Virus record (IMG/VR): IMGVR_UViG_3300028833_003520
Source: a virus
Taxonomy: Duplodnaviria > Caudoviricetes
Direction: 5' to 3' (one strand)
Length of the DNA: 64,000 nt
Position 1 is the stretch's first letter. Each line of letters opens with the position of its first letter. The notes under the pieces were generated by a model. The model had not been told where the DNA came from. It did no database searches and saw only the letters and a list, made by a program, of their open reading frames with translations. Made by a program: the position numbers and the translations under genes. This document shows, one piece after another, positions 7,787 to 64,000 of the stretch.

Positions 7787-8110
7787 ATGGTACAACCACG
7801 ATGGGGCAATGAGAATCAAACTAATATGTCTTCAATGGTAGATTTTCAACGAAATCTCGAACTTACCAGAATGACACAAGCAACTCAAGCATTAAATGAG
7901 ATTGAAGAAGAGAGACTAATGTTGGAAAAGGCTCAGGCTATGAATGATATGTCTATCTATGAAGACTATATTAGACGGAGAAATGAACGGAAAGCAACAG
8001 AGCAAAACCGTTTGGCAAAAGCAAATAAAGTAATAATTATGATTGGGATTACAGTAGGAATTGTTGGCATTATACTTTTGCTTATAATGTGGGCTTTGTT
8101 TGCATATTAA
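7787..8110 (+). CDS. Small protein with a C-terminal TM segment
   Basis: SD AGGAG; hydrophobic C-terminus. Confidence 0.6.
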   Translation: MVQPRWGNENQTNMSSMVDFQRNLELTRMTQATQALNEIEEERLMLEKAQAMNDMSIYEDYIRRRNERKATEQNRLAKANKVIIMIGITVGIVGIILLLIMWALFAY

Positions 8111-8121
8111 GGAGTGGTTTA

Positions 8122-10365: not shown

Positions 10366-10679
10366 TGGAACTGACCAAGGATGCCGCAAAGATTTGTGCC
10401 ATAATTACGGGAGTGATGCTGACCGCAGTTACTTTTGCTTTTGTTATTTTTGTGTTCCGTTTTCAAACTGATAATCAGTATGTAGAACAGTTGGTTCGGG
10501 CAGGAGCACAAATAAGCGACGATATGACATATATAGACGCTCGTGAACAATTAGACAAATCGTCTTCTATTCTTATGGGGTTCGGTGTGTTAGAGTTGTT
10601 ATTGACATCTATTTTTGGTATTTGCTTAAGAGCAGGATTTGTACCTAAGAAGGAGACGAAAAAAGAATGCGAGCGTTAG
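10362..10679 (+). CDS. Two-TM hypothetical protein
   Basis: ATGA overlap with the relaxase; two hydrophobic segments. Confidence 0.55.
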   Translation: MMELTKDAAKICAIITGVMLTAVTFAFVIFVFRFQTDNQYVEQLVRAGAQISDDMTYIDAREQLDKSSSILMGFGVLELLLTSIFGICLRAGFVPKKETKKECER

Positions 10680-12005: not shown

Positions 12006-12353
12006 ATGGATAACTGGATGCGAAACCTTCGAAATACTATTACTGTGTGGGGTCCAAGTCTTATCTGGACAATAATCTGTTTGGTGATTGTTTTAACACT
12101 CATTATTTTGTGTATTATTACACTTGTTCGTTTGTGTAAAGTTTTAGGAAAAATTCAAGGATTTTTTGAAGAACTTGAAGCAAATGGAGCCACGCTTGCA
12201 CAAGTAACTTATGCAAAAGCCGTAAGTCTTAAAACGATTGCAGAAACAACCGATGATATTGCAGATGAAACTGAAGGTTTGAAAGTTGTTACTGAGGCAA
12301 TTGGTTATGAAGATATGAGTGTTTATGAAAATTATAAGAAAGGGCGTGACTGA
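12006..12353 (+). CDS. Membrane-anchored hypothetical protein
   Basis: SD GAGGTG; one TM segment. Confidence 0.5.
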   Translation: MDNWMRNLRNTITVWGPSLIWTIICLVIVLTLIILCIITLVRLCKVLGKIQGFFEELEANGATLAQVTYAKAVSLKTIAETTDDIADETEGLKVVTEAIGYEDMSVYENYKKGRD

Positions 12354-39928: not shown

Positions 39929-40711
39929 TTAAACTTTGATGAATTTCGTTGCATTCTTGTCGAAGTTATAAGCGGAATCTTTGCTCTTATCTTCGATTTT
40001 AGATTGCTGATTTAATATTTCTAACATCTGATGGATGTGACCTGTTTTGAGGTCGGCATCACTAAGTAGTTTGACGAGTTTATTGTTCTTCTTCTTAATT
40101 TCTTTCTGGATGTCTTTGAGCGATTTATCATCAGGTTTCTCGTTAGGTAAAGCAATCTTTATGGTTGCAAGTGAGTTAGTCAAGTCCTGTATCTCTTTAG
40201 CAAGCGAATTAGCCTCTCCAACAATTTTGCCCACTTCTTCAAGTTTATCGCTCATTCGATGTATGGTGGCTTTTCTTTCGGCTTCTTTGCCGAAGTTCCA
40301 AAATACATAAGCAAAGAGACGCTCGAAGAATAAGAAGAAATTCATTTTAGATTCAACCTTATCTTTGCTGAAAGGTATTACATATTCTTTTGCATCTCTG
40401 CCTATTTCTCTCTTTTCAGAGACAATATAGATGGGTACATAAGCAGGAGAGAGACCTTCTTCTTCAGGTTGAAACATTGATGCAAGCATTGTGATTGAAT
40501 GCATAATGTAGTCATATTCGGTATCACTTAACTCGTCAAGTTTTCCACTTTTGGCAGTATCTAAAAACTCTTTCACAGGATTGTCAATTTCGAGTTTTTG
40601 ACCGATAGCCACATACTCTTTGGCATCTTTCAACTCATCTTCTGTGAGTTGAATACTGGGAATGGGATATTTACCTTCGATAGCATTGTCGGAGTCAAAA
40701 CGTATATACAT
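39929..40711 (-). CDS. Coiled-coil hypothetical protein
   Basis: 260 aa; downstream of the AAA+ gene. Confidence 0.65.
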   Translation of the reverse strand: MYIRFDSDNAIEGKYPIPSIQLTEDELKDAKEYVAIGQKLEIDNPVKEFLDTAKSGKLDELSDTEYDYIMHSITMLASMFQPEEEGLSPAYVPIYIVSEKREIGRDAKEYVIPFSKDKVESKMNFFLFFERLFAYVFWNFGKEAERKATIHRMSDKLEEVGKIVGEANSLAKEIQDLTNSLATIKIALPNEKPDDKSLKDIQKEIKKKNNKLVKLLSDADLKTGHIHQMLEILNQQSKIEDKSKDSAYNFDKNATKFIKV

Positions 40712-40721
40712 AATCTTTACC

Positions 40722-41762
40722 TCATTTTAGTTTAATCGTTTTGATATTAGGGTTGTCGAATATCTTATTATTCACTTCCCTCATAACAGCCGTAGTAAGT
40801 GACCTGACACCTGTGCCTTCGTCGAAAGCAGCATTAGCGACTTGTTCGATATATGCGTCGGTGGCAGTAATTTTAATGCCGAATTCTGAGCCGATACGGA
40901 TAAGAGGGGAGTAGGTTTGATTACGCATAATATTAGCGAAATCATTTGCATCAAATTCGTCAATGAAGATAATATCTTCGATACGACCTCTGAGTTCAGG
41001 CGGAAGAATTTTGTTAACCTCGTCTAATGTGGGAACTTTAGCATTCTTTCGGTGTGTTATATCACAATTGGAAAATCCAATACCACTTATACTCGATTGT
41101 GCGTATTGGGCAAAAGAACCTGCAAAGATACAAACAACATCAGTACAGTCTATGGTTTCAATAGTACCATTTTTAGTAGGTCGATAAGGAAAACTCATAC
41201 CCTCAATCATTCGATAAAGTTCAGGCAAAGCAGATGCATTATGTGTATCTTGGAAGTTATTAGTAAGATATTTGTCAAACTCGTCTATTACTAATATAGG
41301 AACCATATTAGGATAATCTTGACTCTTATTTTTAAGAATATAGAGGTTGGCTTGAATATTGTTTTCTCCTGTGTAACTGGAGTTGATACAATTTGCACCG
41401 TCAATGATTTGCATACAAGGGTATATCTTCTCAAGAATACGGAGAAGTTCGGTTTTTCCGCAGCCAGATTGACCTACGGTAAGTAAAGCACCTTTAGGAC
41501 GATATCCGTTAAGGATTCGCCATAAAAAGATGCTGATAGTCTTTTTATAAGTTTCGTTACCGTATAATTGAGCATCAAGGACATCATAAATTTGTTTTGG
41601 TGTCCAGGAAGCGGAAATCTGTGGAATGGGTGTAACAGATTTACGTGCCGAAGTTTTCTTCGATGAGGTTCGGTAGAACGAATCGCCGAGAACTTTGTAC
41701 GGCGTTTTATCTTTCAAAATACTGCTCTTATAAAAAGACACCTGAACCGAAGGTTCTGCCAT
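40722..41762 (-). CDS. ClpX/HslU-like AAA+ ATPase without a Zn finger
   Basis: GQSGCGKT, VIDEFDK, IFAGSF, PPELRGRI, TGVRSL. Confidence 0.8.
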   Translation of the reverse strand: MAEPSVQVSFYKSSILKDKTPYKVLGDSFYRTSSKKTSARKSVTPIPQISASWTPKQIYDVLDAQLYGNETYKKTISIFLWRILNGYRPKGALLTVGQSGCGKTELLRILEKIYPCMQIIDGANCINSSYTGENNIQANLYILKNKSQDYPNMVPILVIDEFDKYLTNNFQDTHNASALPELYRMIEGMSFPYRPTKNGTIETIDCTDVVCIFAGSFAQYAQSSISGIGFSNCDITHRKNAKVPTLDEVNKILPPELRGRIEDIIFIDEFDANDFANIMRNQTYSPLIRIGSEFGIKITATDAYIEQVANAAFDEGTGVRSLTTAVMREVNNKIFDNPNIKTIKLK

Positions 41763-41989
41763 AATTTATAATTCTCCTTTGTTATGGAAACTGTTCGTTT
41801 ATGAAAGAATTTTACAATATTTTCGGTGATAAATCAAATGTAGAGATATGCAGATTTATAGCACGATATGTAATAATTTATAACGATAATTATTACTTTA
41901 ATTATTACTTTGTCAGAACAAAGAGAAAATAAAATGTGTGGCAAAATTGAGTGAAAGCAATGACAGGTCTGTGTCAAATGTCAGGTGGG

Positions 41990-43060
41990 TGTTATCATCG
42001 TAATGTAACTTATGCAAAAGGCATTTTACTCCTTAAGAAAGAAAAGGGCAGGGATGTGTGTTACCCCGTCCTTTTCTTTTTGTTAGGCGTGTATTCCAAT
42101 TTTTCCATCGAATGATATAATAGGAGAATCAAAGTCCAAGTTACCTCGCAAGACATTGATAAAAGTGGTATGTTTATTCTTACCAAGTTAGGTTATGAGA
42201 TAGAAGAGTCAAGTCAGCCGCTTGGCTCTTTTATTTTATCAAAGACTGTGGTAGATTAGTTGTTATAGTAGTAGTTTAACTGACGGTAAATATGGACTAC
42301 TTACTGGTTTCCTTTCTATGCAAAGAGCAGTCCGAAGAGGGCTGTTCTTTTAAGTTAGAAGGTGATACAATAGCAATGTAATTAGTTATGCTAACTAACT
42401 TTTTACAATTCAGATACAGATGTATTCTTCATCGAGCATTAAGGACAGAAGGCACTCTGTCCTTTTTGTTTGGTGTATGCTATAATCGGTTCAAGGCTTA
42501 TGATATTAACTCATTCGCCACCTTTCAAAAAAGATGCAAAGAGGACGGTTATTTACCGCCCTTTTTGTTTAGAAGATGTCATTTATTTGATAGAATTGAT
42601 GTTATAATGAATGTATAATTAGAGTAGTCAGGAAAGCCATAAGACTATCTCTTTGGGATTTTGCAGTAAGGGTGGGTATATCCCACCTTTATTGTTTATG
42701 ATATAATCAGTCTGTTGCCATTGCCATTGGTGACGAGAATAAACTTGAGGCACACATATGACGCAAGATAGGCAGAGGTTTTCCTCTGCTTATTTCGTTT
42801 TTACAGATTTGTCCAGGATAAGAAGTAACGCAATTGTAATGCACAAGTGTTATAGTTGTGCTATAATACGATTACTGATTATCTATTCACGACCTTAGGT
42901 ATTTCAGTTTTCAAGATTCGAGATAAAGCAGTCATTAGCAGTCCTTGTGGCTGCTTTTTCTTTTTGGTATAATGATTGTAGAAAGGTGATTACATCATCT
43001 TTTTGTTTCTCATTAACGGCAGGGAAGGACAGGAGCAACATCGCCTGTCCTTTTCTTCGT
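41990..43060 (+). ncRNA. Tandem array of nine putative small RNA genes
   Basis: Extended -10 (TGnTA(T/C)(A/C)(A/G)T) hexamers at 41993, 42116, 42264, 42366, 42481, 42603, 42702, 42862 and 42968, each followed within about 90-110 nt by a GC hairpin plus T run. Confidence 0.65.
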
Positions 43061-43183
43061 TTTACAGTATGAGATTTTATTCTAATACTGGTTTCAATCT
43101 CTTTTACAAGAAAAGAACTCGGCTATCAAAACAATAAGCGACGGTTGTTTCGGAGCATTATTAGTTTTGGGTAGGGAAGAATC

Positions 43184-43378
43184 GGGGACAAAGTAGGGAA
43201 TAGGTGGGGACAAATCGGGGACATTTCAGGGACAATGTGAAGATAGGTGGCTTGAATGTGATTGATTAACATCTCAATGTGAATATCAAAGGCTATTATG
43301 TGAAGAAATGTGATTGAAGCAGCAGATTGATGTGAAGATTTGAGCATCAAATGTGATTAAATAGACGACTGATGTGAA
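43184..43378 (+). repeat. Helically phased GGGACA (x4) and ATGTGA (x8) repeats
   Basis: ATGTGA starts at 43235, 43256, 43277, 43298, 43308, 43330, 43351, 43372; GGGACA at 43185, 43207, 43218, 43229. Confidence 0.7.
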
Positions 43379-43930
43379 TTTCACGCAGTTTTACACAGAA
43401 AAACTGGTTAAAATTTAGTGATAGGTGCTTTTCTGAGAGGTTATCTCTAAAAAAGTCGCCTATTTTTTCGTGATAACGGTTTGCGAATGGAAATATTCCA
43501 AAAGGAATAATATTATTCTTATAGGAATATTTTTATGACTGACAGGAATATCGTTATTCCTAATAGCATATCCGAACGGCATATTTCGAAGCGTAATTTC
43601 GTCCCAATGTTTTACAGGGAAGGGGATGAGAGTGCTCGTATTGGTATCAGGCGGCGGAATTTTGAAAATTCTCGGCGAGTTTTTGAAATCAGAGAGGTTG
43701 TTTTCGAAATTTACCTCAAAATTTGCACCGAAATTTTTCATAATGAGAAGTGGTTCGGACAGCAAATTATGTATAGAAATGTATGGGCAAAATATGTTTT
43801 ATGTAGATTAAACAGAGTTTTGCAGCGTAATTTTACATCAGAAAGAGGAGCCAAAAAGTGTGTCACGCTCTTGAGCGACTCCAAAAATGTTAAGTTTAAT
43901 GTAGATTAAACCCTTGTTTTTGAGAAAATT

Positions 43931-44291
43931 TTCTATACATTCTATACGTTTCTATACCCCTTTTCTATACATTCTATACACAAGAATCCTTAAATTTAGG
44001 GCTTTATAGCCATTTGTATAGATTGTATAGAAAATATTTAAGTCAATTATAGAGCCTTTTTATTTTTTCGTGTAGCACACTTCCCATTTTTCTCAGTGTA
44101 AATCAAAAGACAATTTTTAAGATAATAAATGACTTGTAAAAATTCTATACTTTCTATACAAAGTACCGCAAACCCTTATAAAATAAGGCTTTGAGGCGTA
44201 TAGAAATGAAATAGCGTTTCTATACATTCTATACACGAACCTCTGAAACGCCTATGAAATAAGGGTTTTGGGCGTATAGAATTTTCTATAC
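43931..44291. repeat. TTCTATAC octamer cluster (direct and inverted), putative replication origin
   Basis: 10 forward and 3 reverse perfect copies, separated by imperfect palindromes such as AAACCCTTATAAAATAAGGCTTT. Confidence 0.7.
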
Positions 44292-44364
44292 ACGCTTTTA
44301 GCAGGTATTTTCCAGTGTAAAATACCGCAGTTTGATAAGATTCAAATTTTTTTGTGTAATACTA

Positions 44365-44584: not shown

Positions 44585-45121
44585 ATGGCAAACGTAAGAA
44601 AAGACGTAATCGGTCCTGACGGCAAGTCTGGTATGAAGGGCAGAGAAATCATCGCAAGAGTAGTTGAGCGTGACGAAAAGAATGGTAAGGGTTATTATAT
44701 GAATGCCCAGTTGAACCAGTCTTTCGGTAAGCCCGTGAACACAACTTCACAGCCTCATCTCGCAAAGGCTCACTCTTTCAAGGGTAATGACGGTACAGAG
44801 AGAAACTCTTATGATATTCGTCTTGGACCTAAGCAGGTAGAGGCACTCAAGGCTAATTCCAAGTCTTGCACACTCGAAGATGGTTCCACAATCTACGGTT
44901 TCACCGCAGACCTTATGAAGACCAAGGACAACGGACTTATGCCCGACTTTGGTACTCTCAAGCCCACTTCCAAGAAGATTGACGACAAGTCTTGGGCAAA
45001 GCAGTCTGCTACAACTCAGAAGGCTTTCAAGGCTGGTGAGGCACAGCGTGCTGCTAAGGCTGCTGAAAAGACTGCAGAGGCTCCTGCAAAGGATGACGCT
45101 CAGGCAGAAATCGGCGGTTAA
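44585..45121 (+). CDS. Basic hypothetical protein, probably highly expressed
   Basis: SD AAAGGAG, strongly biased codons, two promoters, own terminator; ends AEIGG. Confidence 0.75.
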   Translation: MANVRKDVIGPDGKSGMKGREIIARVVERDEKNGKGYYMNAQLNQSFGKPVNTTSQPHLAKAHSFKGNDGTERNSYDIRLGPKQVEALKANSKSCTLEDGSTIYGFTADLMKTKDNGLMPDFGTLKPTSKKIDDKSWAKQSATTQKAFKAGEAQRAAKAAEKTAEAPAKDDAQAEIGG

Positions 45122-46541: not shown

Positions 46542-46718
46542 ATGAGTCTTGATAAAGCAATACAACACGGTAAGGAGCATAGAAAGCCATACAGACGTGC
46601 TAAGTCTGTTGATAGTCAGTGCAGAAATCACGGTTCTTGTCTTTGGTGTAAAGGCAATAGAACTTATAGGTTTAGGAAAGAAGAAGAGAGGTTAAATCAA
46701 AATGTTGAAGAAGAATGA
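46542..46718 (+). CDS. Small basic Cys/His protein
   Basis: MSLDKAIQHGKEHRKPY...CRNHGSCLWC. Confidence 0.55.
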   Translation: MSLDKAIQHGKEHRKPYRRAKSVDSQCRNHGSCLWCKGNRTYRFRKEEERLNQNVEEE

Positions 46719-48504
46719 TACTTCGTTGTTTGAGTTAGGCAAGGGTTATGACATCTTTCCTGATAGATGTGCAACATCATCAGTAGATGCTACGTCTATC
46801 GTTGGTCACGTTCTTTTTAGCCAGCCTAAAAAGTGCGATAAGATAGACGCAAAATTTGCAAAGACGATTTCGAAGAAAATAGGTTCAAAGAACCTTAATC
46901 CTGTATTTGCACCTGATGCAATTCCGTATAAGTATAGTAAAGACGGCTACAAGACCGTAGGTGATGTAGTTAGAGAAGATTGGCAGGTAAGATATGGAGC
47001 GTTGCCGACAGGTGCTTTTATCGTAGATACAGAACCGTCGCATAATCTTATCATCAATACTTCTGCAGGAATTGCTGACCACTCTATCTTAAAATCTTAT
47101 GTTGATATGTTTGCTCGTAGTAGAAACAATAACAACATAGTTATTTATGACCGTAAAGGTGAGGCACTTCACTTTTATGGTAAGGAGTTAGAAAAGTACG
47201 GATATGATATCCGAATAATAGATACTATCGGTGCAAGGCGTGATGATGGAACAAGAGTATTTGGTACAGATAAGACTTGCATCACATATAATCCTTTGGC
47301 TTTAGCCGTTAAGTATGCTATTAGAGCAAGGAACGATACACGTTCCGATTGGTGGACAAAGGTTGCTATTGTTGTTAATGACGCTGTTGCTGACTTGATG
47401 TGTCGTTACCCAGAGGGTGGCGACCCATTTCATCCGACTGCGGCATACTATTTGGTCTTAGGACTCATATACGCTTTGATATGGAATGCATTGGAAGACC
47501 TGGCGAACGAGCCTATGGTCAGCAATTATGTTAATCCGTTAACGGATAGTAAATGCGTAGAGATTTTTGAGAGAGTTAATCTTGCGAATGTCTATGACAT
47601 TCTTGTCAAGATAAGAGAGGGTGATTTCAATGGTTTGAACAAACTTGGAATCAAGGTAACTGACGAGGACGATATTTATTCTTTGTTTGAGAATACAATA
47701 TCGAGAATATATGAGAGACCTTATATTGACGAGAAGGGCGAGGAGTATGATTTTAATTCCTCTATACGTCAGTTACTTAAGTATTCGTGGGATATTGCCA
47801 GAGTTTCGTTATGTAGTAACGATATATTCTTTGCAATAAATGAGTTAGCACCGATTGCCGAGATGAGGTTTACCTTAACAGGCATTCGTGGTTCTAATGT
47901 CTTCGATACCGAAGAGTTTGTGGCAGATAATGGTGCAAAGAAACAGATTATTTTCTTTGTCTATGGTGGTTATCAGACCAACTATAGTAGGTATTTTAGG
48001 ACATTTATTCATCAGGTGCTTAACAAAGTGTATGCATCTGTAGCAACTCCGAGAGAGCCAATTAAGGTCAAGGGCACACGTTTTGTCATAGACGACCTTT
48101 CTATGATAATAGATGCACAGCAAGAAGGACATTGGGACAATGCGTTGGACCCCTTGCTTGCTGTTGGGCATCAGTATAATCAGTTATTCACAGTAGCCAC
48201 TTCATCAATAGATATGTTCAGAAGCGTATTTGGTCTGACAAAGGACAAGGATTTCGAGGAGTTTGAGAAGACTGCTCATATTGTGTTCATTAAGAGTGCT
48301 GATGATACTCTTATTGATTATTTTCTTGCACGAGAGAAGAAGTGCCATACTGTAATACCTGAAAGGTTTGGCTATAATGACCTTGCATTTATGGATAGAG
48401 GGTGCAGAGTAATACTGTGTCCTGATGGTACAGCCGTTTGGTGTAAGAACTTGTTTCCTTATACGACACGGTTCAATAACGTAATTTTTTTGACAGTCTT
48501 ATGA
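46702..48504 (+). CDS. Degenerate soluble VirD4/TraG coupling-protein paralogue (Walker A lost)
   Basis: Colinear blocks with 53203-57579; AITRAGKG replaced by INTSAGIA; no N-terminal TM. Confidence 0.75.
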   Translation: MLKKNDTSLFELGKGYDIFPDRCATSSVDATSIVGHVLFSQPKKCDKIDAKFAKTISKKIGSKNLNPVFAPDAIPYKYSKDGYKTVGDVVREDWQVRYGALPTGAFIVDTEPSHNLIINTSAGIADHSILKSYVDMFARSRNNNNIVIYDRKGEALHFYGKELEKYGYDIRIIDTIGARRDDGTRVFGTDKTCITYNPLALAVKYAIRARNDTRSDWWTKVAIVVNDAVADLMCRYPEGGDPFHPTAAYYLVLGLIYALIWNALEDLANEPMVSNYVNPLTDSKCVEIFERVNLANVYDILVKIREGDFNGLNKLGIKVTDEDDIYSLFENTISRIYERPYIDEKGEEYDFNSSIRQLLKYSWDIARVSLCSNDIFFAINELAPIAEMRFTLTGIRGSNVFDTEEFVADNGAKKQIIFFVYGGYQTNYSRYFRTFIHQVLNKVYASVATPREPIKVKGTRFVIDDLSMIIDAQQEGHWDNALDPLLAVGHQYNQLFTVATSSIDMFRSVFGLTKDKDFEEFEKTAHIVFIKSADDTLIDYFLAREKKCHTVIPERFGYNDLAFMDRGCRVILCPDGTAVWCKNLFPYTTRFNNVIFLTVL

Positions 48505-53202: not shown

Positions 53203-56200
53203 GTGGCAAAGCGAAATTGGGATTTAGTTCGTAAACAGCAGAACGCTGATAAGTTGCAATATCGTGATGTATATGAAGACCAGCAGATGGAACGAAGCAA
53301 GTTGCCTGCAAAGCAGACAGCGACGGCTCGTACCATATTTGCTATCGTAGTTGCTCTTATGGCTGCAGGTGCAGCGTATGCGATTGCGTGTGTCTTCGGT
53401 TCATTGTTTAGCGGTTTAGGGGATATAGGAAGTACAGATACAGGTTCAGGGGGACAGGGTACTGTCATAGAACAGCCTTCGGAAACCGCTTCATCAACAG
53501 GTGTCAGAATCGAGAGTGGCACTGTTATTAAGGATTCCGTTGTTGTTATCAGTACAACGACAGGTGAGACATTAGATACTTGGGTTTATACGAACCTTGA
53601 TAACGGTGACGTAAGGTATATCTGTGATGCTCATCCTGGTTATTCTTTTGCAACAGAGTATGAAATCGCAGATGGTTACAAAAATGGCGTATGGTATTTA
53701 GATGAAGCCGCACAGCAGAGTGCTACATCAGTTTATTGGGATTACCATACGACGTGGATGACACTTTATCGTGGTGACCCGAACGGGGAACACACGGAAA
53801 TAGATACTTGGGAAAATACAGGTGGTGTTTATGGTGAGCAGTACACTTGCTCTAATCATCCGTCTTTCAGTTTTAGCGACCAAGAATCCGTTGAGGCTCA
53901 TTATGATTCCGAAGGTAATTGGTCAGATACAGTAGTTTCACAAGGTAATGCAGGACAGGAAAGTTCTACAGATAGCGGTGATATGCCGTCTATATCCTTT
54001 GGTGTGGACTGGACTCCTTCATTCGGTAAGATTTTATTTGCAATAGCCGTTGGTGGTATTGTTTTTGCTCTTTTACACACGGCTATGATGCGTAACTTGA
54101 AAGCACAGAATATGCTTTCAGATACCTCTGATATTAACCAATATCAGAACGACCAGCATATTGCTCTCCCTGAAGAAATTCAGGAGAAGTTTGACTGGTT
54201 TCCCGATGTTGGTGCGACCTCGGATGTACAATTCTCGTCAATGATTTCGCATATGGCTCTTTCTAACAAGGGTATTAAGAAAGTCAAGTTCTCGAAGCGT
54301 GCAGATAAGGATATCTACGACGCAGACGGAGATATTGAATACTATAAGGGCGAAGTTCTTCTTGATGATAATGGACAGCCGATTCAAACAGAGGTTCCGA
54401 TGTTTGATGAGCAGTTTATGGAAGACCTTTTTACTGCTTCAGGTGCTCCCCCGAAGGATAAAACGATTCGTAAGTATTACGATGCGACGAAGATTAAGTA
54501 TAATCCTGACGGAAGCAATCGAGATAAACTTGGCAAGTATAACACAGTTGCAGACCTTATCAATGCCGATTGGGAATTGCCTTATTATGAACCTCAAAGA
54601 CCTGCAGGTGCATATATCGTAGATACTGCTCCTGTAAATACGATGGTCTTGGCTATTACCCGTGCAGGTAAAGGTCAGACTGTAATCGAGCCTACGCTCG
54701 ATATGTGGATGCGTGAGAGAAGACCTAACAATATGGTTATAAATGACCCGAAGGGTGAGTTGCTCGTTAAGAACTATGTTAGAGCAACTGTTAGAGGTTT
54801 CCAAGTTGTTCAGTTTAACCTTATCAACGCTATGAAAACCGACATTTATAATCCGTTAGGAATGGCAGCAGAAGCCGCACGAGAAGGAGACTTCACCAAA
54901 TGTGCAATGTACGTCGAGAACATCGCAGATGTATTCTTCCCTCTTGACGGTGGTGATGACCCTGTGTGGCCTAATGCTGCGAACAACGCATTTAAGAGAG
55001 CATCTTATGGTCTTATCGACTATTATCTTGAGGAAGAAAAGGAGTTACGCCTTTTCGCCGAAAGAACGAAGATGGACGAAAAGATACTTGAGGCTAAATT
55101 GGACGAGATGTGGGGTAAAGTTACGCTTTACAACACTTATCAGTTGTTCGTTCAGTTGACTTCGAAGAAGTTAAAGAACCCTTCTGTTGAATTCGCAAAG
55201 AAGGCAAAAGAGGGTGAATATGATAATCTTTCTGATGAGGATTATGATATCGAACTTAATAAGGTTGAGAGACAGTCTTTACTTTGGGAAGACAAGCCTG
55301 AGTGTGACCTGTTGACCTTGTACTTCAATGCAACAGATGCGTTGCCGAGAAACTCAATGAGAACTCTCGTTGCAAACGCAAACAATGCGTTGAAGGCGAT
55401 GGCTGGTGCTGAGAAGATGATGGCATCCGTTTACGGTATTGCTATCACGGCTATGTCGTTCTTCACAGACCCGACGATTTCAACACTGACATCAGGCACA
55501 CCTTCGCAGAATGTTGACCTTGCAGGTCTTTCATTCCCTCGAAGATTAGGCGTAAGATTTAACTCAGACTTCGTGCATAACTATCATCTGATTGGTATGC
55601 AGGCAAAATGGATGAGTTACGAGGACGATAAGTTTACGAAGGAACTCGGTAAAGACTTTTATCACGAAGACCTTATTACAAGAGAAGGTTGGGCAAAGTA
55701 TTACTTCAAGGGCAAGTACCCTAATGATGTTGCTTATGTTAAGTTATCTATCGTTAATCCGAAGACGGAATTGACAATCAGAACATTCTACTTCCAGTTT
55801 AAGAAGAACTATCAGACTTCATTGGACGGACGTAAGTACGTGCTTGACCCTGTACTCAATGAGAAGATAGTTAAGAATGGTATTCTGACAGAGTTGAGAC
55901 CGTTCAGACAGGAGACGAAGGATGGTAAGCAGGTATTAGTACCGCTTGCTATGGGTGAAAAGCCTGATGCGAACACAGTTTATAAGAAAGGTAAGACGAC
56001 TTTTGCTCAGGATAAGATTATCAATATCACTGGCGACTCCACGAGGGGACAGGTTCAGACCAATGCTATTATCAGAACGATGGCTCGTTATGCAGAAAAG
56101 CCGAAGATGGTATTCTTGGTTACACCTCCTCACTTGATGAAGTATGCGAAGTTGATTCTTATTCTTATCAAGCAGTTGGTTGACTTGAACTTCGACCAGT

Positions 56201-57579
56201 CTTATATGACGAAATCCAATCAGAAGCCTCTCTATAAGACGAGATTTATGTTGGATGAGTTAGGTAACCTTCAGTCCGAAGGACACGGTATTTCAGGCTT
56301 TGAAACGATGCTTTCTATCGGTCTTGGTCAGGAACAGCAGTTTACTCTTATCTTGCAGACATTACAGCAGTTGAGAGACGTTTATGGAGACTCTGTTGAT
56401 AAAATCGTTCAGGGTAACACATCTAACATTGTGTTCCTTAAATCAACGGATGACTCAATGCTTGATACTCTGCAGAAAATGTCTGGTACAACGCATAAGT
56501 CTTTTACTGATTCAAAGACAGTAACAAGGGATATGCAGGAGATTTTCCAAGGTATGAGTGCTAACGAAGGTAAGGCATCTTATACGATGACTACTAAGGA
56601 AGTGCCTGTTATTTCGTACAACGATATGGCGTTCATTTCTGAGCGTAATAGTATTGTGTTCCGTGCAGGTGATGCACCGATTTGGAACAGAAACGAGACT
56701 ATCCTTCCGATGTCTTGGAGACTTTTCAAGAATACTATTACACAGCCTGGTAAGGAATATACCTTGCAGACGATACCGACACTTTCTTCGGCTATCGACT
56801 TCGATGTACGTAAGAATCAGCCTGACTTCCAGAAGATGCTTGATAAGCGTATGGCTCAAGCAAATAAGGCTCCTGATGCAAAGAGTTTGTATCAGATGTC
56901 TTATGATTTCACTGATTATCAGATGGAACAGCAGGACCCTGATATTCTCGCAGATGAAATTATGGATATCATTAACACATATATCCGTGAGGCAAATACT
57001 GACGAGGAAGAAGAGGAAGTATTTGACTATGATTTCGGCGAAGACGATATGTGGGGTTTTGCAGAAGATGATAGTTCAACACAGGAAATGGTCAGTGCTA
57101 TCGCTAATGGACAGTCAATCCCTGTTAATGGCGTAGATAAGACCTTTGTAGGTGTTGATAAAACTGCTTCAGAGAAGCGTTTCGCAGGCGGTCTCTTATC
57201 ACCTGATATGCTCGTCAATGCGTCAGGTATAAACCATAGTCTTGATAAAGACATCATTAAGGTTTACACAGATATTAAAGGCGACTTATGGCGTGATACA
57301 GCGTACTTTGTTGTACGCAATGGAGACCTTTATGGTATTAACAATGAGCCTTATATCATTAAGGCAGATAACTCCGAAGCCCTTGAGGTATTGAATAATG
57401 CCGCCAAGGATGAAGATAGTAACGTCTATGGTGACGAGGATATTGATATATCTGAAGTCCATTCATTCGGCACTTATACAGTAACGGATGGTTTCTATCG
57501 CTTCCTTGCAGGGCAGAAGAGGTGGTCTTTCGCAAACGGTAAGTTTGAAGAGGCTATGTATCGACAATTAGATTCGTAA
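53203..57579 (+). CDS. virD4: Type IV coupling protein VirD4/TraG with an enlarged inter-TM loop
   Basis: Two TMs, Walker A AITRAGKG, INDPKGE, YNPL, Walker B FMLDELGN, LQTLQQLRDVYG. Confidence 0.9.
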   Translation: MAKRNWDLVRKQQNADKLQYRDVYEDQQMERSKLPAKQTATARTIFAIVVALMAAGAAYAIACVFGSLFSGLGDIGSTDTGSGGQGTVIEQPSETASSTGVRIESGTVIKDSVVVISTTTGETLDTWVYTNLDNGDVRYICDAHPGYSFATEYEIADGYKNGVWYLDEAAQQSATSVYWDYHTTWMTLYRGDPNGEHTEIDTWENTGGVYGEQYTCSNHPSFSFSDQESVEAHYDSEGNWSDTVVSQGNAGQESSTDSGDMPSISFGVDWTPSFGKILFAIAVGGIVFALLHTAMMRNLKAQNMLSDTSDINQYQNDQHIALPEEIQEKFDWFPDVGATSDVQFSSMISHMALSNKGIKKVKFSKRADKDIYDADGDIEYYKGEVLLDDNGQPIQTEVPMFDEQFMEDLFTASGAPPKDKTIRKYYDATKIKYNPDGSNRDKLGKYNTVADLINADWELPYYEPQRPAGAYIVDTAPVNTMVLAITRAGKGQTVIEPTLDMWMRERRPNNMVINDPKGELLVKNYVRATVRGFQVVQFNLINAMKTDIYNPLGMAAEAAREGDFTKCAMYVENIADVFFPLDGGDDPVWPNAANNAFKRASYGLIDYYLEEEKELRLFAERTKMDEKILEAKLDEMWGKVTLYNTYQLFVQLTSKKLKNPSVEFAKKAKEGEYDNLSDEDYDIELNKVERQSLLWEDKPECDLLTLYFNATDALPRNSMRTLVANANNALKAMAGAEKMMASVYGIAITAMSFFTDPTISTLTSGTPSQNVDLAGLSFPRRLGVRFNSDFVHNYHLIGMQAKWMSYEDDKFTKELGKDFYHEDLITREGWAKYYFKGKYPNDVAYVKLSIVNPKTELTIRTFYFQFKKNYQTSLDGRKYVLDPVLNEKIVKNGILTELRPFRQETKDGKQVLVPLAMGEKPDANTVYKKGKTTFAQDKIINITGDSTRGQVQTNAIIRTMARYAEKPKMVFLVTPPHLMKYAKLILILIKQLVDLNFDQSYMTKSNQKPLYKTRFMLDELGNLQSEGHGISGFETMLSIGLGQEQQFTLILQTLQQLRDVYGDSVDKIVQGNTSNIVFLKSTDDSMLDTLQKMSGTTHKSFTDSKTVTRDMQEIFQGMSANEGKASYTMTTKEVPVISYNDMAFISERNSIVFRAGDAPIWNRNETILPMSWRLFKNTITQPGKEYTLQTIPTLSSAIDFDVRKNQPDFQKMLDKRMAQANKAPDAKSLYQMSYDFTDYQMEQQDPDILADEIMDIINTYIREANTDEEEEEVFDYDFGEDDMWGFAEDDSSTQEMVSAIANGQSIPVNGVDKTFVGVDKTASEKRFAGGLLSPDMLVNASGINHSLDKDIIKVYTDIKGDLWRDTAYFVVRNGDLYGINNEPYIIKADNSEALEVLNNAAKDEDSNVYGDEDIDISEVHSFGTYTVTDGFYRFLAGQKRWSFANGKFEEAMYRQLDS

Positions 57580-58887: not shown

Positions 58888-61800
58888 ATGGCTTATAGCG
58901 TTGCTTATAAAGATTGGTTATTTAACTGCGGTAATCGTAGTGAATATATCATCTATCGTGCAATAGAAGAATTCAGTAGGCAGAGAGAAGAACGGGGCGA
59001 TAGACCCGTTTCTCTTAGTGAGGGAGTCGCTTTGCGTCAGCAGATTCTTAAGAATCTTGAAAGCAATCCCGAAATCAATAGTTATGTTTCTGATGCATAC
59101 GATATAGGTTTGAAGTCACTTTCAAACCGTATTCAGATGAATCCTATCTTGATGTCAATTCAAGCAGAGGGTTCATTTGCGAAGATTTTCGGTGGAAAGT
59201 CTTATGAGAATGTATCGAAGGAACAGTTAGATAGCATTATCGTGACACAGGAAAACAAAGCAAAAGATAGACGAGAATCTTTTATTGAGTCTATCAATGA
59301 GGTTTTGCCTGGCATCGAACTTAATGAAGAAAAGTTCAATAACTTAATTACGACTTATACGAATGCGGTAGTAAGTGTTAGGAACAATGGTTCATATTCT
59401 TATGAGCCTGCGGTGCCTTTGTCACCGTATTGTCCTGCATTTACGACTCGTAGTTTTACTTATAAAAATCCTGCGTTGTCTTTGATGAAGAAGTCAGATA
59501 AGCAAACAGCAGATGGCAATTATGCCGATTTTGTACGCATTTATCATCCGACAAGAGATGATATCGAGGACCAGTACGACGATTTCATTCGTTTCTATAA
59601 GGCGGAGTATGCAACTTTTGGTGAGAATACTAAAGGTCGTGGCGATAGTGCCAAGACCAATATTATTAAGACCGATGTTCCTACTTTCTACACGAATGAA
59701 GATGATTTCTATCTGAATGGTTTGAGAAAATACTTGACAGAAGAAGATGCAGCGAAGGTTATTAAGCATTGTAATCGTTTCGTAGATAGAACAGGCACAC
59801 CTTATAAGCGTGCCAATATGAAGAAAAGTATGGAATTGCTCCAGCGTATCGCTGAGGCTGGTTACGACTATACTATAGTACCGAAAGCAGGCGGTCAGGT
59901 TGATTGCCGTGTTTCCGTGTTGGGTTCTAATTACGATATAAGTATGATACCTCAACCAAACCAGTCCTTTGCGTATAACTTCGGTAGAGTATTTTGTCGT
60001 GAGAGTGGTGTTTCCTATAACCTGAATACACAGAATAAGTCTCCTGAAAAGGGTTACAAATACGAACCCTACGAAGCAAGTGTAACAGATGCTATGAATC
60101 TGTTGAAGTTTGCTATGGGAGAACCTGTTACTGTTGATACAAAGAATAATGTACCTTTAGGTAAGCACCGTTTGATTTCGTTCAACACTCCGAAGGGAAC
60201 AGTATATCGTAATAACGCATATTATAATAAGGGTAATGAGCAGATAAAGAACTTTACTGCTTACTATGGTCGTTCTTCTGACGGTGTAAACGTATTCTTG
60301 AAGGCTAATACTTCTGAGGTTACACCGAAGACGGCTCGTTTTGGTAGGAAAGGCGTTTCAAAGGAAGAAGACGCTGAACTTCATCTTAAAGAGTGGATTG
60401 AGTCTGCAAGACAGACATACACTGACGAGATGGATTTGGAGAATCTTATTCGTGAAGCAAGAGACCATCAGAATGACCCTGATTATGAGTTTAGATTCTC
60501 AGGTGTACCTGAAATCTATGCTATGCAGAAGAATTACTGGAATGTTCTCACAGGCAAAGAGCACGCTCTTGCTAAAGTAGGTCAAGATGACGATGAGTTT
60601 GATGAAGTTGGTGTTGAGAGAGCATATTATGAAGGCTCTCCTGAAGACAAAGTGCGTCAGCATTTTGCAGATTCCATTCATCACGATATCGGCACTTTTG
60701 AGCCTGATGCAAATGGTAAGAGGTATAGCATATATGGTCTTACCAATTATGCTGTAACTGACTTTAACTCAACTCGTTTCAGATTATCTGTTGTAGCAGC
60801 AACTAATCTGTTAGGCTTTAAGCCTGATGAGTTACAAGATACAGATGCTCAAGGCGATAGCGTAAAGAATATGCTTATCCGTTATGATGAAAAGACGGCA
60901 CAGCCTATTTTCCATCACGAGAGCAAATTCGTTCGTAATATGGGTTCCGTTATTAAGGACACTCTTCAGCAGAGTGGTATCGTAATTGAGGATGACGATA
61001 TTACGATTGACGATAACGGTATCGTGCAGTACAAGGGTAAAAAGGTCATTAACGGAGAATTCCGTCGTGACCCGAAGGCTAAGCGATATGGCACAGTTAG
61101 TATCGAAGATGGCTTGGATAAGCCTGAAGAAGTTGTAGGTCATATCGGTCAGATTTTTGCTCCTGAAGGCAAGTACAACACAGTTACAACGAAGTTTGCA
61201 GGCACAAAGAACTATATGTTCGTGCCTGGATATACAGCGAAGATATTGCCACAGAAAGATGGCGAGAATTTGCCTTATGAGGCAAGAACTCGTCTGTTGG
61301 GTTATGAGCAGTTGATGAGTCAGCGAATCAGGTCTCAGTTGCGTAGTGACCTCTTTATGACCATAGATAACTATGATGGTGCAGCATTAGGTATGAACAC
61401 ATCTCTGAATAAGGTTTATACGAACCTTTATGATGTGCGTCATCCTGTGGACTATATCGAGCGTTCAAGGGAAGAGGGAATGGATGACAGTTTCCTTGAG
61501 GCTGTTCTTGCTACAGAGGCACGCAGAGTCAGATATGATAGTGTCTATAAAGAACAGGCGACACTTAATGCTTATTATCAGGCATATACTCATAAGAGTA
61601 CGCTTATTGATGATAGAAATGTCAACCCTCTCACTCTGACAGGCTTTAGAAATATGGCTATTATGACAGAGGAAGGCGATGGGTATTTTGACCCTGATGC
61701 TACTTCCACTGGTATGAACCAAGGTGTTACAAGATACCTTGTCGAGAGTGCAGAAGTATTACCTGACGGTAGTATCAAGCGTGGCGACTTGGATGATAAG

Positions 61801-64000
61801 ACACCTCTGTGTAAGCATCCAGTTATGCATTGGGCAGATTACGTTCCGTTTGACCGTCGCCAGATGGTCTTCAACAACGCAATTAAGGCTCAGTGCATTA
61901 CAGGAAAGGTAAAGACTGCACAGATGACCTTTGGTGGTTGGAACTTTGACGATGGTTTCATCGTTACAAAGCAGTTTGCCGAGACATATAAGGTGCGTAA
62001 TAAAGATGACGTTCTTCGAGATATCGTTGTCGGAGATAAGATTCTCGATAAGAACGGTAACAAGGGTGTTATCTCACTTGTTATCGACCCTGATATGTCT
62101 ATGGAAGAAGCCCGTGAGCAGGGACTTGAAAATGTTCTTGCGATGGTAAAGGCAAACCCTGATATTCAGGTTTATGGTGCTCCATATCCTGCAGTATCTC
62201 GTTTTAACGGTGGTACAGCAAGAGAACTTATGGAGAATCCCTCAGATTTGCATATGCCAGACGGTACTATCAAAGAAGGATGTGTCGGCGAAGCCGAATT
62301 CATCGTTACACATATGGCTGTTGACAAGAAGTCACAGATTTATGACGACCAAGCCTTCGAAGAAGGTAAGGGTAGTAGAGCCTCTGCACAACTTGCTTGG
62401 GCATTGAATGCGAGAGGTGCGGAAGCAATGATGAGAGAGTTCTATTCTGATAATGATAGAGCCTTCACGACAATGCGTGAGTATTTCATCACTTGCGGCT
62501 ATGACTTATCCGAGACAGGTCAGATTATGCGTGGTTATACACCACACCCTGGCGAGGTAAGGAATGTCTTTGCTATGGAAGAAATCGAGAATATGCCGAA
62601 AGAGGGTTTAACTCAGTCGGCTATTCGTTCCAAGGTCTTCGATATGACAAGACAGATTCGTCATTCGGGTGGTTTTATGGAACTTCCGTTCCCGTTGACT
62701 TTCCCGAACGGTACTACTATTCCTCAAGTTCAGATTGAACACGATGTGATAACTGAAGCCGACAAGACTGACGTAAATTACACGAAGGATAGTTGGACAG
62801 TTAACCGTAATGGCAAGGAAATCACATATCATCGTAATCGGGAACTTTTGGATAACGGTGGCTCCAAGTTGGTTGATAGGAAGATTTCTGATGCAAAGAA
62901 GCCTATTTATGCATTGCCTGTAATGAGTTCTCATTTGAGAGTTGACCAGCCTTATCAGGATGGTACAACGATGCTTAACGATTGTACTGAATTCTATCAG
63001 TACATTTACAGAGCAGGTTTGACATATCTTGAAGCAGAGCGTAAAGGTGACAAAGCAGCAATGACAAAGGCTCGTAATGATGCTCAGCGTTTCTTTGATA
63101 GAATCACAGGTGATATTGTCGAGAATAGATTTGAAGACAATAAGCATAACTATTTCAAAGAAGGTTTGATGAGCAACAGAATGCCGAAGTCTTCTAACCC
63201 TGTTTGGACTGCTGACCCTCGACTTGATATTGAGGAAGTCGGTGTTTCGCCAGAAATGGCAGAAAGACTCGAACTTGAAGAGGGTGAAACAGTCTTAACA
63301 TTCCGTAACCCTGTTCTGCGTCCTGAAGGTGTTAGTGCAAAGAAAGTCAAAATCCTTAAGGGTATTGTAGGTATTGCAATTAACCCTGTAATGGATAAGG
63401 GTTATGATGGTGACTTCGATGGTGATACAGTACCTTTGAAGAAATTGCTCACACCTGAAGCAAAGGAAGAGGCTGAAAGACTTTACTCTGTAAAGGCAAC
63501 ACTTTTGGACTATGGTTCAAAAGACGAGGATGGCAACTATGGTCTCTTAATGAATCACGGTCTTGATTTGAAGACTGCTGAATATAATCGTCCTGAACTC
63601 AAAGACCAGTACGATGAGATTACGAAGCGTGTTAATGGATTTGAGAAGGATTATGCAAGCGGAAAACTTTCTTATGAGGAAGTTGATAAGATGCGTGAGC
63701 AGGCTGTTAAGGATTTGAACGATTATGTTCATAAGTGCTTTGAAGGCGGTGTTGGTGAAGCCATTATCAGTTACAAGGATATTTCGTCACACGTTGCTTC
63801 GTGTGAGGAGATTGTTAAATCGGGAGCAAAGGGAAGTTACAGTAAACTTGATGACTATTGTAACTATCTTGGAGCGTCCTACGAATATAATGTGGATGAG
63901 AATGGCGAGAAGACCTCTATTAACCTCGATACTGTTGAAGATTTGGAGACACCTTTTGGTGGCGATAAGGAATCTGCAAGACAGGCATCTATGGCTACGC
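58888..64000 (+). CDS. Single-chain (beta/beta'-fused) two-barrel DNA-dependent RNA polymerase, 3' truncated by the window
   Basis: Frame open from ATG 58888 (SD AAGGGG); beta-like GGWNFDDG, VGDKILDKNGNKGVIS, AVSRFNGG; beta'-like LPVMSSHLR, FRNPVL, NPVMDKGYDGDFDGD (63406-26), SGAKGS. Confidence 0.9.
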   Translation, partial: MAYSVAYKDWLFNCGNRSEYIIYRAIEEFSRQREERGDRPVSLSEGVALRQQILKNLESNPEINSYVSDAYDIGLKSLSNRIQMNPILMSIQAEGSFAKIFGGKSYENVSKEQLDSIIVTQENKAKDRRESFIESINEVLPGIELNEEKFNNLITTYTNAVVSVRNNGSYSYEPAVPLSPYCPAFTTRSFTYKNPALSLMKKSDKQTADGNYADFVRIYHPTRDDIEDQYDDFIRFYKAEYATFGENTKGRGDSAKTNIIKTDVPTFYTNEDDFYLNGLRKYLTEEDAAKVIKHCNRFVDRTGTPYKRANMKKSMELLQRIAEAGYDYTIVPKAGGQVDCRVSVLGSNYDISMIPQPNQSFAYNFGRVFCRESGVSYNLNTQNKSPEKGYKYEPYEASVTDAMNLLKFAMGEPVTVDTKNNVPLGKHRLISFNTPKGTVYRNNAYYNKGNEQIKNFTAYYGRSSDGVNVFLKANTSEVTPKTARFGRKGVSKEEDAELHLKEWIESARQTYTDEMDLENLIREARDHQNDPDYEFRFSGVPEIYAMQKNYWNVLTGKEHALAKVGQDDDEFDEVGVERAYYEGSPEDKVRQHFADSIHHDIGTFEPDANGKRYSIYGLTNYAVTDFNSTRFRLSVVAATNLLGFKPDELQDTDAQGDSVKNMLIRYDEKTAQPIFHHESKFVRNMGSVIKDTLQQSGIVIEDDDITIDDNGIVQYKGKKVINGEFRRDPKAKRYGTVSIEDGLDKPEEVVGHIGQIFAPEGKYNTVTTKFAGTKNYMFVPGYTAKILPQKDGENLPYEARTRLLGYEQLMSQRIRSQLRSDLFMTIDNYDGAALGMNTSLNKVYTNLYDVRHPVDYIERSREEGMDDSFLEAVLATEARRVRYDSVYKEQATLNAYYQAYTHKSTLIDDRNVNPLTLTGFRNMAIMTEEGDGYFDPDATSTGMNQGVTRYLVESAEVLPDGSIKRGDLDDKTPLCKHPVMHWADYVPFDRRQMVFNNAIKAQCITGKVKTAQMTFGGWNFDDGFIVTKQFAETYKVRNKDDVLRDIVVGDKILDKNGNKGVISLVIDPDMSMEEAREQGLENVLAMVKANPDIQVYGAPYPAVSRFNGGTARELMENPSDLHMPDGTIKEGCVGEAEFIVTHMAVDKKSQIYDDQAFEEGKGSRASAQLAWALNARGAEAMMREFYSDNDRAFTTMREYFITCGYDLSETGQIMRGYTPHPGEVRNVFAMEEIENMPKEGLTQSAIRSKVFDMTRQIRHSGGFMELPFPLTFPNGTTIPQVQIEHDVITEADKTDVNYTKDSWTVNRNGKEITYHRNRELLDNGGSKLVDRKISDAKKPIYALPVMSSHLRVDQPYQDGTTMLNDCTEFYQYIYRAGLTYLEAERKGDKAAMTKARNDAQRFFDRITGDIVENRFEDNKHNYFKEGLMSNRMPKSSNPVWTADPRLDIEEVGVSPEMAERLELEEGETVLTFRNPVLRPEGVSAKKVKILKGIVGIAINPVMDKGYDGDFDGDTVPLKKLLTPEAKEEAERLYSVKATLLDYGSKDEDGNYGLLMNHGLDLKTAEYNRPELKDQYDEITKRVNGFEKDYASGKLSYEEVDKMREQAVKDLNDYVHKCFEGGVGEAIISYKDISSHVASCEEIVKSGAKGSYSKLDDYCNYLGASYEYNVDENGEKTSINLDTVEDLETPFGGDKESARQASMAT

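Follow-up and report, generated by a model that had tools for sequence, protein, structure and literature searches.

Nine tandem promoter-to-terminator cassettes, probably genes for small regulatory RNAs, on a conjugative megaplasmid-like element from the rumen

Within a 64,000-nucleotide stretch of the record IMGVR_UViG_3300028833_003520 (IMG/VR; Duplodnaviria, Caudoviricetes), hereafter the window, which denotes the whole length of DNA analysed and to which all positions refer unless another contig is named, we describe a protein-free array of about 1.1 kb at 41990-43062 on the + strand. The array is a row of nine separate promoter-to-terminator mini-genes (U1 to U9), all in the same orientation and built to one design, in which an extended -10 promoter resembling TGnTATAAT is followed by a body of 33-73 nt, unrelated from one unit to the next, and by a strong intrinsic terminator. 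We consider it probable, on the grounds of sequence comparison, that the array is a battery of regulatory small RNAs (sRNAs) that would be transcribed by the host polymerase and carried in cassettes that can be shuffled between related plasmids.

The units were read from the sequence of positions 41500-43600 and their coordinates are collected in Table 1. A preliminary description of this DNA had proposed nine promoter-to-terminator cassettes in a stretch poor in open reading frames (ORFs), and the promoter, terminator and detector results given here confirm it: every one of the nine -10 hexamers was found where it had been placed, and at each of the proposed terminator positions a hairpin and a T-tract are present, 40-110 nt downstream of the promoter. 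A TG dinucleotide lies one base upstream of the hexamer in nine of nine units, and the terminator hairpins are G+C-rich throughout, each running into its T-tract. When folded from about +1 to the T-tract, the whole units reach -23 to -33 kcal/mol, with the 3' hairpin dominating. The 64 kb contain 11 exact copies of TGNTATAAT, against a mean of 4.35 in shuffled sequence, with none of 100 shuffles reaching 11; six of the 11 matches fall inside the array, within 860 bp and all on the + strand. We also applied a detector that required TGn and a hexamer with at least five of six matches to TATAAT, together with a T-tract and a hairpin at least as stable as -8 kcal/mol that lay 40-190 nt downstream. 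On the + strand it returned 11 matches, all in the array (the nine units, together with a second -10 in U6 at 42591 and in U8 at 42851), and no promoter-terminator unit in the remaining 63 kb; the - strand gave four matches, which are scattered. A stricter scan for sigma-70 promoters and terminators picks up just two to three of each in the array, because most units are without a -35 element and several stems contain one mismatch. Indeed, the -35 position is taken in most units by the T-tract of the preceding one, and at eight junctions the T-tract either overlaps the next promoter, as several do, or ends no more than 45 nt before it.

What is repeated in the array is the architecture and not the sequence, as the preliminary description had stated: the bodies share no k-mer or motif above shuffle level, and repeat finders detect only short similarities between terminators or T-tracts. 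No transfer RNA was found in the array by ARAGORN, and the Rfam search that had been suggested, which was carried out here, returned no family at gathering thresholds or at E-value level, the best matches (E-values of 0.19-5) lying far below the cut-offs. By prediction, each unit has the features by which an independent sRNA gene is recognised, namely its own promoter and a Rho-independent terminator bounding 50-300 nt with no translated ORF.

The units are non-coding. None of their + strand ORFs is preceded by a Shine-Dalgarno (SD) sequence at the proper distance, nearly all run into or through the terminator, and U8 contains no ORF whatever. Furthermore, strains of the same lineage differ by indels of 4 nt in U2 (a deletion at 42173 in three strain variants, which excludes coding for this unit), of 1, 2, 3 and 17 nt in U4 and of 1 nt in U7, and such frame-breaking changes rule out coding. 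Both the lack of SD-led ORFs and the indels back the independently promoted RNA units that had been proposed. We consider it very unlikely that micro-peptides are made from the units, or that these pair, in the manner of type I toxin-antitoxin loci, with small ORFs of the other strand. Purely mechanical ORFs, 20-76 aa long, can be drawn on both strands, and one of 45 aa on the - strand (42904-43041), antisense to U8 and U9, sits in a segment that is invariant among strains, has AAGGA 6-7 nt before its ATG and is called as a gene on two JGI contigs. This ORF is, however, left uncalled on two other contigs of identical sequence, its peptide is hydrophilic, it has no promoter match and a terminator stem, read on the complementary strand, accounts for its apparent SD; we consider it probably spurious. 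No hydrophobic, SD-led ORF, as a type I toxin would require, was found on either strand, and the array of a related plasmid, L109, which is described below, has neither cassette ORFs nor equivalents of the small ORFs of the window.

Selection on the array was followed in five strain variants of about 96% identity. Three were aligned in full (L099, L100 and L098+L108; 95-97% identical), and the runs X4 and X5 were represented by partial difference tables drawn from contigs. All five carry nine cassettes in unchanged order with no joints. Across them, 42 sites of the 1073-nt array are variable, and the -10 hexamers, the TG dinucleotides (nine of each) and the terminator stems are all free of them; the lone change inside any terminator, C>T at 43036, which is also the sole variant of U9, is in the loop. 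The binomial p for the first 38 sites, set against 346 constrained nucleotides, is 6e-7, with a similar result for the three fully aligned strains alone, and of the four sites added later one falls in a terminator, namely in its loop. The free middle base of the TGn varies in two of the nine units, as expected for a position of no consequence. This distribution of variable sites shows promoters and terminators to be under purifying selection, and that selection touches every one of them agrees with a battery of independently promoted units.

Within the predicted transcripts substitutions are rarer at paired sites (6/472) than at unpaired ones (12/320; Fisher p 0.03). Five of the six substitutions that do hit a pair still leave one when the sequence is read as + strand RNA, whether only then or on the other strand as well; A>G at 42503 in U5 preserves a pair of the 5' hairpin as G-U, and G>A at 42717 in U7 converts a G-U pair to A-U. 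The bodies vary unevenly: U1, U3, U8 and U9 are invariant (for U1, zero variable sites in four strain variants), and U4 and U7 are hot, with the 3' half of the U4 body being hypervariable (a 17-nt deletion, 3-nt deletions and +2/-1 indels). Taken alone, the pattern within the lineage could reflect either RNAs of which short parts are functional or a role of transcription itself.

A search for relatives based on the AAA+ protein encoded to the left of the array returned the same lineage or relatives at no more than 51% identity, and it was the 178-aa protein encoded downstream (44585-45121) that led to informative plasmids. Its homologue, 71% identical, is found on the 235.6-kb plasmid L109 (L110, from another sample, is identical there). 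The two elements are syntenic over a primase gene, a MerR-like gene, a 174/179-aa gene, the TCTATACA iterons and the 178-aa gene, at 71-76% nucleotide identity, and the equivalent interval of L109 (5920-6806) contains about seven extended -10/terminator cassettes of like design. The two arrays do not align, four pieces excepted, and 945 shuffled comparisons gave a maximum score of 22, with none reaching 24. Three of the pieces are short islands within bodies: TACTGGTTTCCTTTCTA of U3 is matched at 17 of 17 positions in the last L109 cassette (score 34), which is otherwise unalignable, CAGTTTTCAAGATTCG of U8 at 15 of 16 in the second (score 27) and TTTGTTTCTCAT of U9 at 12 of 12 in the third (score 24, marginal taken alone). 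The fourth is the junction between the U4 terminator and the U5 promoter, 81% identical to L109:6240-6282, the second/third junction, which joins different cassettes.

The islands are predicted to be accessible in both plasmids, with probabilities of being unpaired of 0.64-0.77 versus 0.31-0.49 for the whole RNAs (window and L109, respectively: 0.64 and 0.76 for U3, 0.71 and 0.67 for U8, 0.77 and 0.71 for U9). They are also held in different scaffolds; the U3 island is part of a linker in the window, and in L109 it falls within a hairpin loop of 12 nt. The cassettes that bear them are among those invariant between strains. Accessible, conserved islands in otherwise free sequence, together with conserved promoters and terminators, are the signature to be expected of trans-acting, base-pairing sRNAs with seeds, and the pattern of a putative seed that is kept while the remainder diverges is seen in U3, U8 and U9, and not in the other six units. 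The preliminary description had called the RNAs trans-acting; the seed-like islands suggest the same.

The order of the cassettes differs between the two plasmids, U3 standing before U8-U9 in the window and after them in L109, where the adjacency of U8 and U9 is retained (Vb-Vc). It had been suggested that the orthologous locus be compared for gain and loss of cassettes, and the comparison bore this out with the different number and order in L109. More distant relatives (178-aa protein at 55% identity; AAA+ protein at no more than 51%) have iterons at this place and no array. In the viral collection no relative was found, and by DNA similarity the phage and plasmid collections gave no match even at E up to 10.

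Shuffled cassettes recall the promoter-early stem-loop (PeSL) elements of T4-type phages, which have been described as transcriptionally isolated linkers that shuffle (PMC2839356, PMC4122927), and the array shares with them the composite of a stem-loop terminator followed by a sigma-70-type promoter as well as the apparent shuffling of modules between relatives at these junctions. It might accordingly be a pile-up of PeSL-like linkers whose protein cargo was lost or shrunk, with the short bodies as relics. The closeness of T-tract and next promoter at eight junctions, the resemblance of the U4/U5 junction to one in L109 that joins different cassettes and the changed cassette order all fit such an origin. 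We nevertheless hold it to be quite improbable. In the hyperplastic regions of phages, PeSLs make up a conserved family of repeats on the flanks of protein genes, whereas the junctions here form no family (mean column identity of 40%, no invariant column), the modules are free of ORFs in every cassette of both plasmids and the surrounding genes are those of a plasmid. Terminator-promoter composites are also rare elsewhere in the window, with two other cases only, and relics would not be expected to keep all promoters and terminators or the islands in the bodies.

The unique bodies in a repeated architecture had also led to the suggestion of a variable guide library, in which the bodies would be spacers directed against competing phages or plasmids and used by an RNA-guided effector, be it CRISPR-like or another programmable nuclease or silencer. 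Variability is borne out, as cassette content and order differ between the related plasmids (nine versus about seven cassettes, three of them shared), but the notion of guides is not, and we find it barely credible. Unlike CRISPR and other guide arrays, this one has no repeat or constant scaffold alternating with spacers that a guide-binding protein could recognise, and no cas-like or other known effector family is present among the neighbouring ORFs scanned. No protospacer-like match was found in 50,697 phage and 72,556 plasmid records, nor in the window or the host-family genomes, and all nine cassettes are retained in each of the five strain variants, which come from several studies.

In the reading that we favour, each of the nine units would be a separate gene for a non-coding RNA of about 75-110 nt, transcribed by the housekeeping RNA polymerase of the host from its extended -10 promoter and stopped at its own intrinsic terminator. 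The RNAs would most likely act in trans by base-pairing, as the seed-like pattern suggests. Each is predicted to possess a short, weakly structured stretch, and in U3, U8 and U9 at least this would contain a conserved, accessible seed of 12-17 nt for pairing with target messenger RNAs (mRNAs). The 3' part of the U3 island, UCCUUUCUA, resembles the 3' tail of 16S ribosomal RNA, and this anti-SD-like seed would pair with strong SD regions and so occlude ribosome-binding sites. The cassettes would be modules that are gained, lost, reordered and recombined at terminator/promoter junctions between related plasmids. The discrete RNA species, their pairing and their targets are all three what we infer.

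Several results weigh against regulatory sRNAs. Contigs of two metatranscriptome runs on one sample (X12, X18) cover parts of the array at a low depth of 2-7, bridging terminators and with the flanking genes at similar depth; they do not single out discrete transcripts, and may derive from carried-over DNA or from read-through. Of their six left ends, four fall 9-18 nt past predicted start sites, but this was given no weight, since the ends of RNAs cannot be defined by contigs. The bodies are no more complementary to the 64 kb than shuffles are, whether matches are exact or allow G-U pairs, the three islands, searched as reverse complements with up to two mismatches, find no site in the window, L109, L111 or the Butyrivibrio loci, and island target sites are not enriched over reversed-pattern controls in 201 host-family genomes; within the element, the target search covered the 64-kb window of its 243 kb, plus the loci of the relatives. 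An antisense match of U2 to a Butyrivibrio replicon (21/22) was set aside, as it lies inside an ORF and is within chance. An anti-SD 6-mer is present in three bodies, where 0.8 are expected (p 0.03), a marginal enrichment, and 5-mers are not significant. No RNA chaperone was recognised nearby, the neighbouring proteins giving no family or atlas lead of this kind, and the conserved islands could in principle be DNA-binding sites. Finally, averaged over the nine units, the bodies vary much as the spacers do (4.8% versus 5.7%) and their structure is not more stable than that of shuffles (z of +0.6 to -2.4), and therefore six of the nine cassettes are without direct evidence of function at the level of sequence.

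A role at the level of DNA or of transcription would accommodate these last two findings, together with the strong constraint on promoters and terminators. A block of this kind by the replication region could serve to load RNA polymerase, to set local supercoiling, to shield the origin from the AAA+ operon or to provide transcripts for R-loops or priming, with the bodies as spacers. The location is in keeping with this, since the array lies between the divergent operon, with its AT-rich, polymorphic 12-mer duplication, and the repeat and iteron blocks, and its syntenic place beside the iterons is kept in L109. We nonetheless regard such a role as unlikely, because it leaves unexplained the three islands, their predicted accessibility in different scaffolds and the four invariant bodies. 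Moreover, the iterons that are conserved in the family are 860 bp off, behind a 124-aa ORF, more distant relatives have iterons without an array, and an insulator needs terminators only, most of which score here on one strand only.

Table 1. Positions of the nine cassettes, of the candidate seeds and of the flanking features in the window.
Feature	Position	Strand	Description
ClpX-like AAA+ ATPase gene, 346 aa (left flank)	40722-41762	-	Divergent from array
U1	41990-42085	+	TGtTATCAT, -10 at 41993; body ~33 nt; terminator 42038-42079 + T-tract
U2	42113-42240	+	TGaTATAAT, -10 at 42116; body ~73 nt; terminator 42201-42230
U3	42261-42356	+	TGtTATAGT, -10 at 42264; body ~46 nt; terminator 42322-42350
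U3 conserved island, candidate seed TACTGGTTTCCTTTCTA	42302-42318	+	Match to L109:6730-6746 (17/17)
U4	42363-42472	+	TGaTACAAT, -10 at 42366; body ~63 nt; terminator 42441-42464
U5	42478-42574	+	TGcTATAAT, -10 at 42481; body ~45 nt; terminator 42538-42566
U6	42588-42699	+	Tandem -10s, TAGAAT 42591 and TGtTATAAT 42603; body ~52 nt; terminator 42667-42690
U7	42699-42803	+	TGaTATAAT, -10 at 42702, overlaps U6 T-tract; body ~51 nt; terminator 42765-42794
U8	42848-42964	+	Tandem -10s, TATAGT 42851 and TGcTATAAT 42862; body ~51 nt; terminator 42925-42957
U8 conserved island, candidate seed CAGTTTTCAAGATTCG	42905-42920	+	Match to L109:6208-6223 (15/16)
U9	42965-43062	+	TGgTATAAT, -10 at 42968, overlaps U8 T-tract; body ~41 nt; terminator 43021-43053
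U9 conserved island, candidate seed TTTGTTTCTCAT	43002-43013	+	Match to L109:6300-6311 (12/12)
GGGGACA x4 at ~11-bp spacing, then ~ten ATGTGAA/ATGTGATT repeats (right flank)	43170-43390	.	Repeat search
TCTATACA iterons, ~12 copies, both orientations	43920-44300	.	860 bp downstream of array, past 124-aa ORF

The element that carries the array appears from its genes to be conjugative and megaplasmid-like and not a phage. Its size is 243.5 kb, that of a JGI contig which, like seven further contigs, encodes a protein identical to the AAA+ neighbour of the array. Among the gene products of the window are a MobL relaxase (8089-10365), a 1458-aa coupling protein of the VirD4/TraG type (53203-57579), a lysozyme-domain protein, a D5-type primase-helicase, a RecD-like helicase and ClpX- and ClpB-like ATPases, and no phage structural genes were recognised among its proteins; an initial interpretation as a jumbo phage was dropped in view of the matches to the relaxase, to the coupling protein of a type IV secretion system and to lysozyme. 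An ORF at 46702-48504 has a weak CD1115-like VirD4 match. Another, of more than 1704 aa (58888-63999), matches Rpb1 domain 2 and is RNA-polymerase-like, and the element seems to encode an RNA polymerase of its own. Among isolate genomes, those of Butyrivibrio have the closest homologues of the AAA+ gene, at 38% identity, and every run that contains the array stretch is a metagenome of sheep or cattle rumen or gut, with 14 studies represented. The likely host is a Butyrivibrio-like bacterium of the rumen.

To the left of the array, the ClpX-like AAA+ gene and a 260-aa partner (together 39929-41762) are absent from the syntenic interval of L109, and the same gene pair adjoins TCTATACA iterons in the more distant elements L004-L006. 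The AT-rich sequence that separates U1 from the AAA+ gene contains a 12-nt tandem duplication, TAATTATTACTT, at 41887-41910, one copy of which is gone in L098, L099, L100 and X4. The first 16 nt of the U1 body (42005-42020) are identical, in the same sense, to 12204-12219, inside the ORF at 12007-12353, at a chance of about 0.01.

To the right, the GGGGACA and ATGTGAA/ATGTGATT repeat sets are not at the corresponding place in L109. Palindromes of the GGAATATT type at 43480-43570 look like operator sites and overlap the start of the 124-aa ORF (43535-43909), for which no relatives were found outside this lineage and the atlas model is of low confidence. The TCTATACA iterons are common to this element, to L109 (7180-7540) and to distant AAA+-linked relatives (L005:2900-3800), and probably mark the replication origin of the family; L111-L113 carry GGTATAGAA iterons in their place. 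The preliminary description had placed the array next to an origin-like region, which holds for the repeats that follow it at 43170-43390, but the iterons shared with relatives begin only beyond the 124-aa ORF. In L109, a poly(A) polymerase/CCA-adding-type enzyme (9074-10462; PolyA_pol, PolyA_pol_RNAbd and a weak HD match) is encoded 2.3 kb downstream of the array, and may be relevant to RNA 3'-end metabolism.

Clusters of sRNA genes are known in Firmicutes as "siblings", such as LhrC1-5 of Listeria and the csRNAs/ccn of streptococci (PMC4211561, PMC8186281, PMC4507080). Like these, the units of the array are adjacent small RNA genes with a promoter and an intrinsic terminator each, and the short, accessible CU-rich motifs by which the siblings pair with ribosome-binding sites are of the kind seen in the U3 island. 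The siblings are, however, paralogues that share sequence, seed and regulator site, whereas the nine bodies here have nothing in common beyond chance, their promoters, of the extended -10 type and with no upstream box in common, look constitutive, and the array resides on a conjugative megaplasmid. In the giant phages 201phi2-1 and phiKZ, sRNAs have been mapped by ONT-cappable-seq (PMC11512511). These too are short promoter-to-terminator units, free of coding sequence, on a very large mobile genome, and one of them is conserved among related phages, but they are scattered single loci, mostly derived from 5' untranslated regions and transcribed from phage promoters, in contrast to nine tandem transcription units of host type that we know from sequence.

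On plasmids, antisense RNAs such as RNA I, CopA, RNAIII of pIP501 and Anti-Q of pCF10 control copy number or conjugation. They resemble the RNAs predicted here in being small, constitutive, ended by a terminator and encoded beside the replication region. They are cis-antisense to a rep or control transcript, whereas all nine units are on one strand, overlap no gene or leader and show no complementarity in the window. Tandem sRNA genes have thus been known as paralogous siblings, plasmid sRNAs mostly as single cis-antisense controllers and giant-phage sRNAs as scattered loci; what would be new is a conjugative megaplasmid that carries nine sRNA genes unrelated to one another, with turnover of cassettes and putative seeds conserved in a relative.

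A broader proposal, which we put forward as possible and still doubtful, is that the giant conjugative plasmids found in Lachnospiraceae of the rumen possess a modular "sRNA toolkit" by the origin, where promoter-seed-terminator cassettes would be collected, exchanged and reshuffled in an integron-like manner, and where each seed would reprogram the translation of host or rival-element mRNAs once the host RNA polymerase sees the incoming plasmid. If the array is indeed a battery of regulatory sRNAs, large conjugative elements can carry whole sets of trans-acting regulators, and RNA cassettes that run from promoter to terminator are able to evolve as modules open to exchange. The nine compact promoter/terminator pairs, tested by evolution, could serve as parts for Lachnospiraceae genetics, and the three candidate seeds of U3, U8 and U9 would offer handles on the host and plasmid functions that uncultured rumen megaplasmids manipulate.

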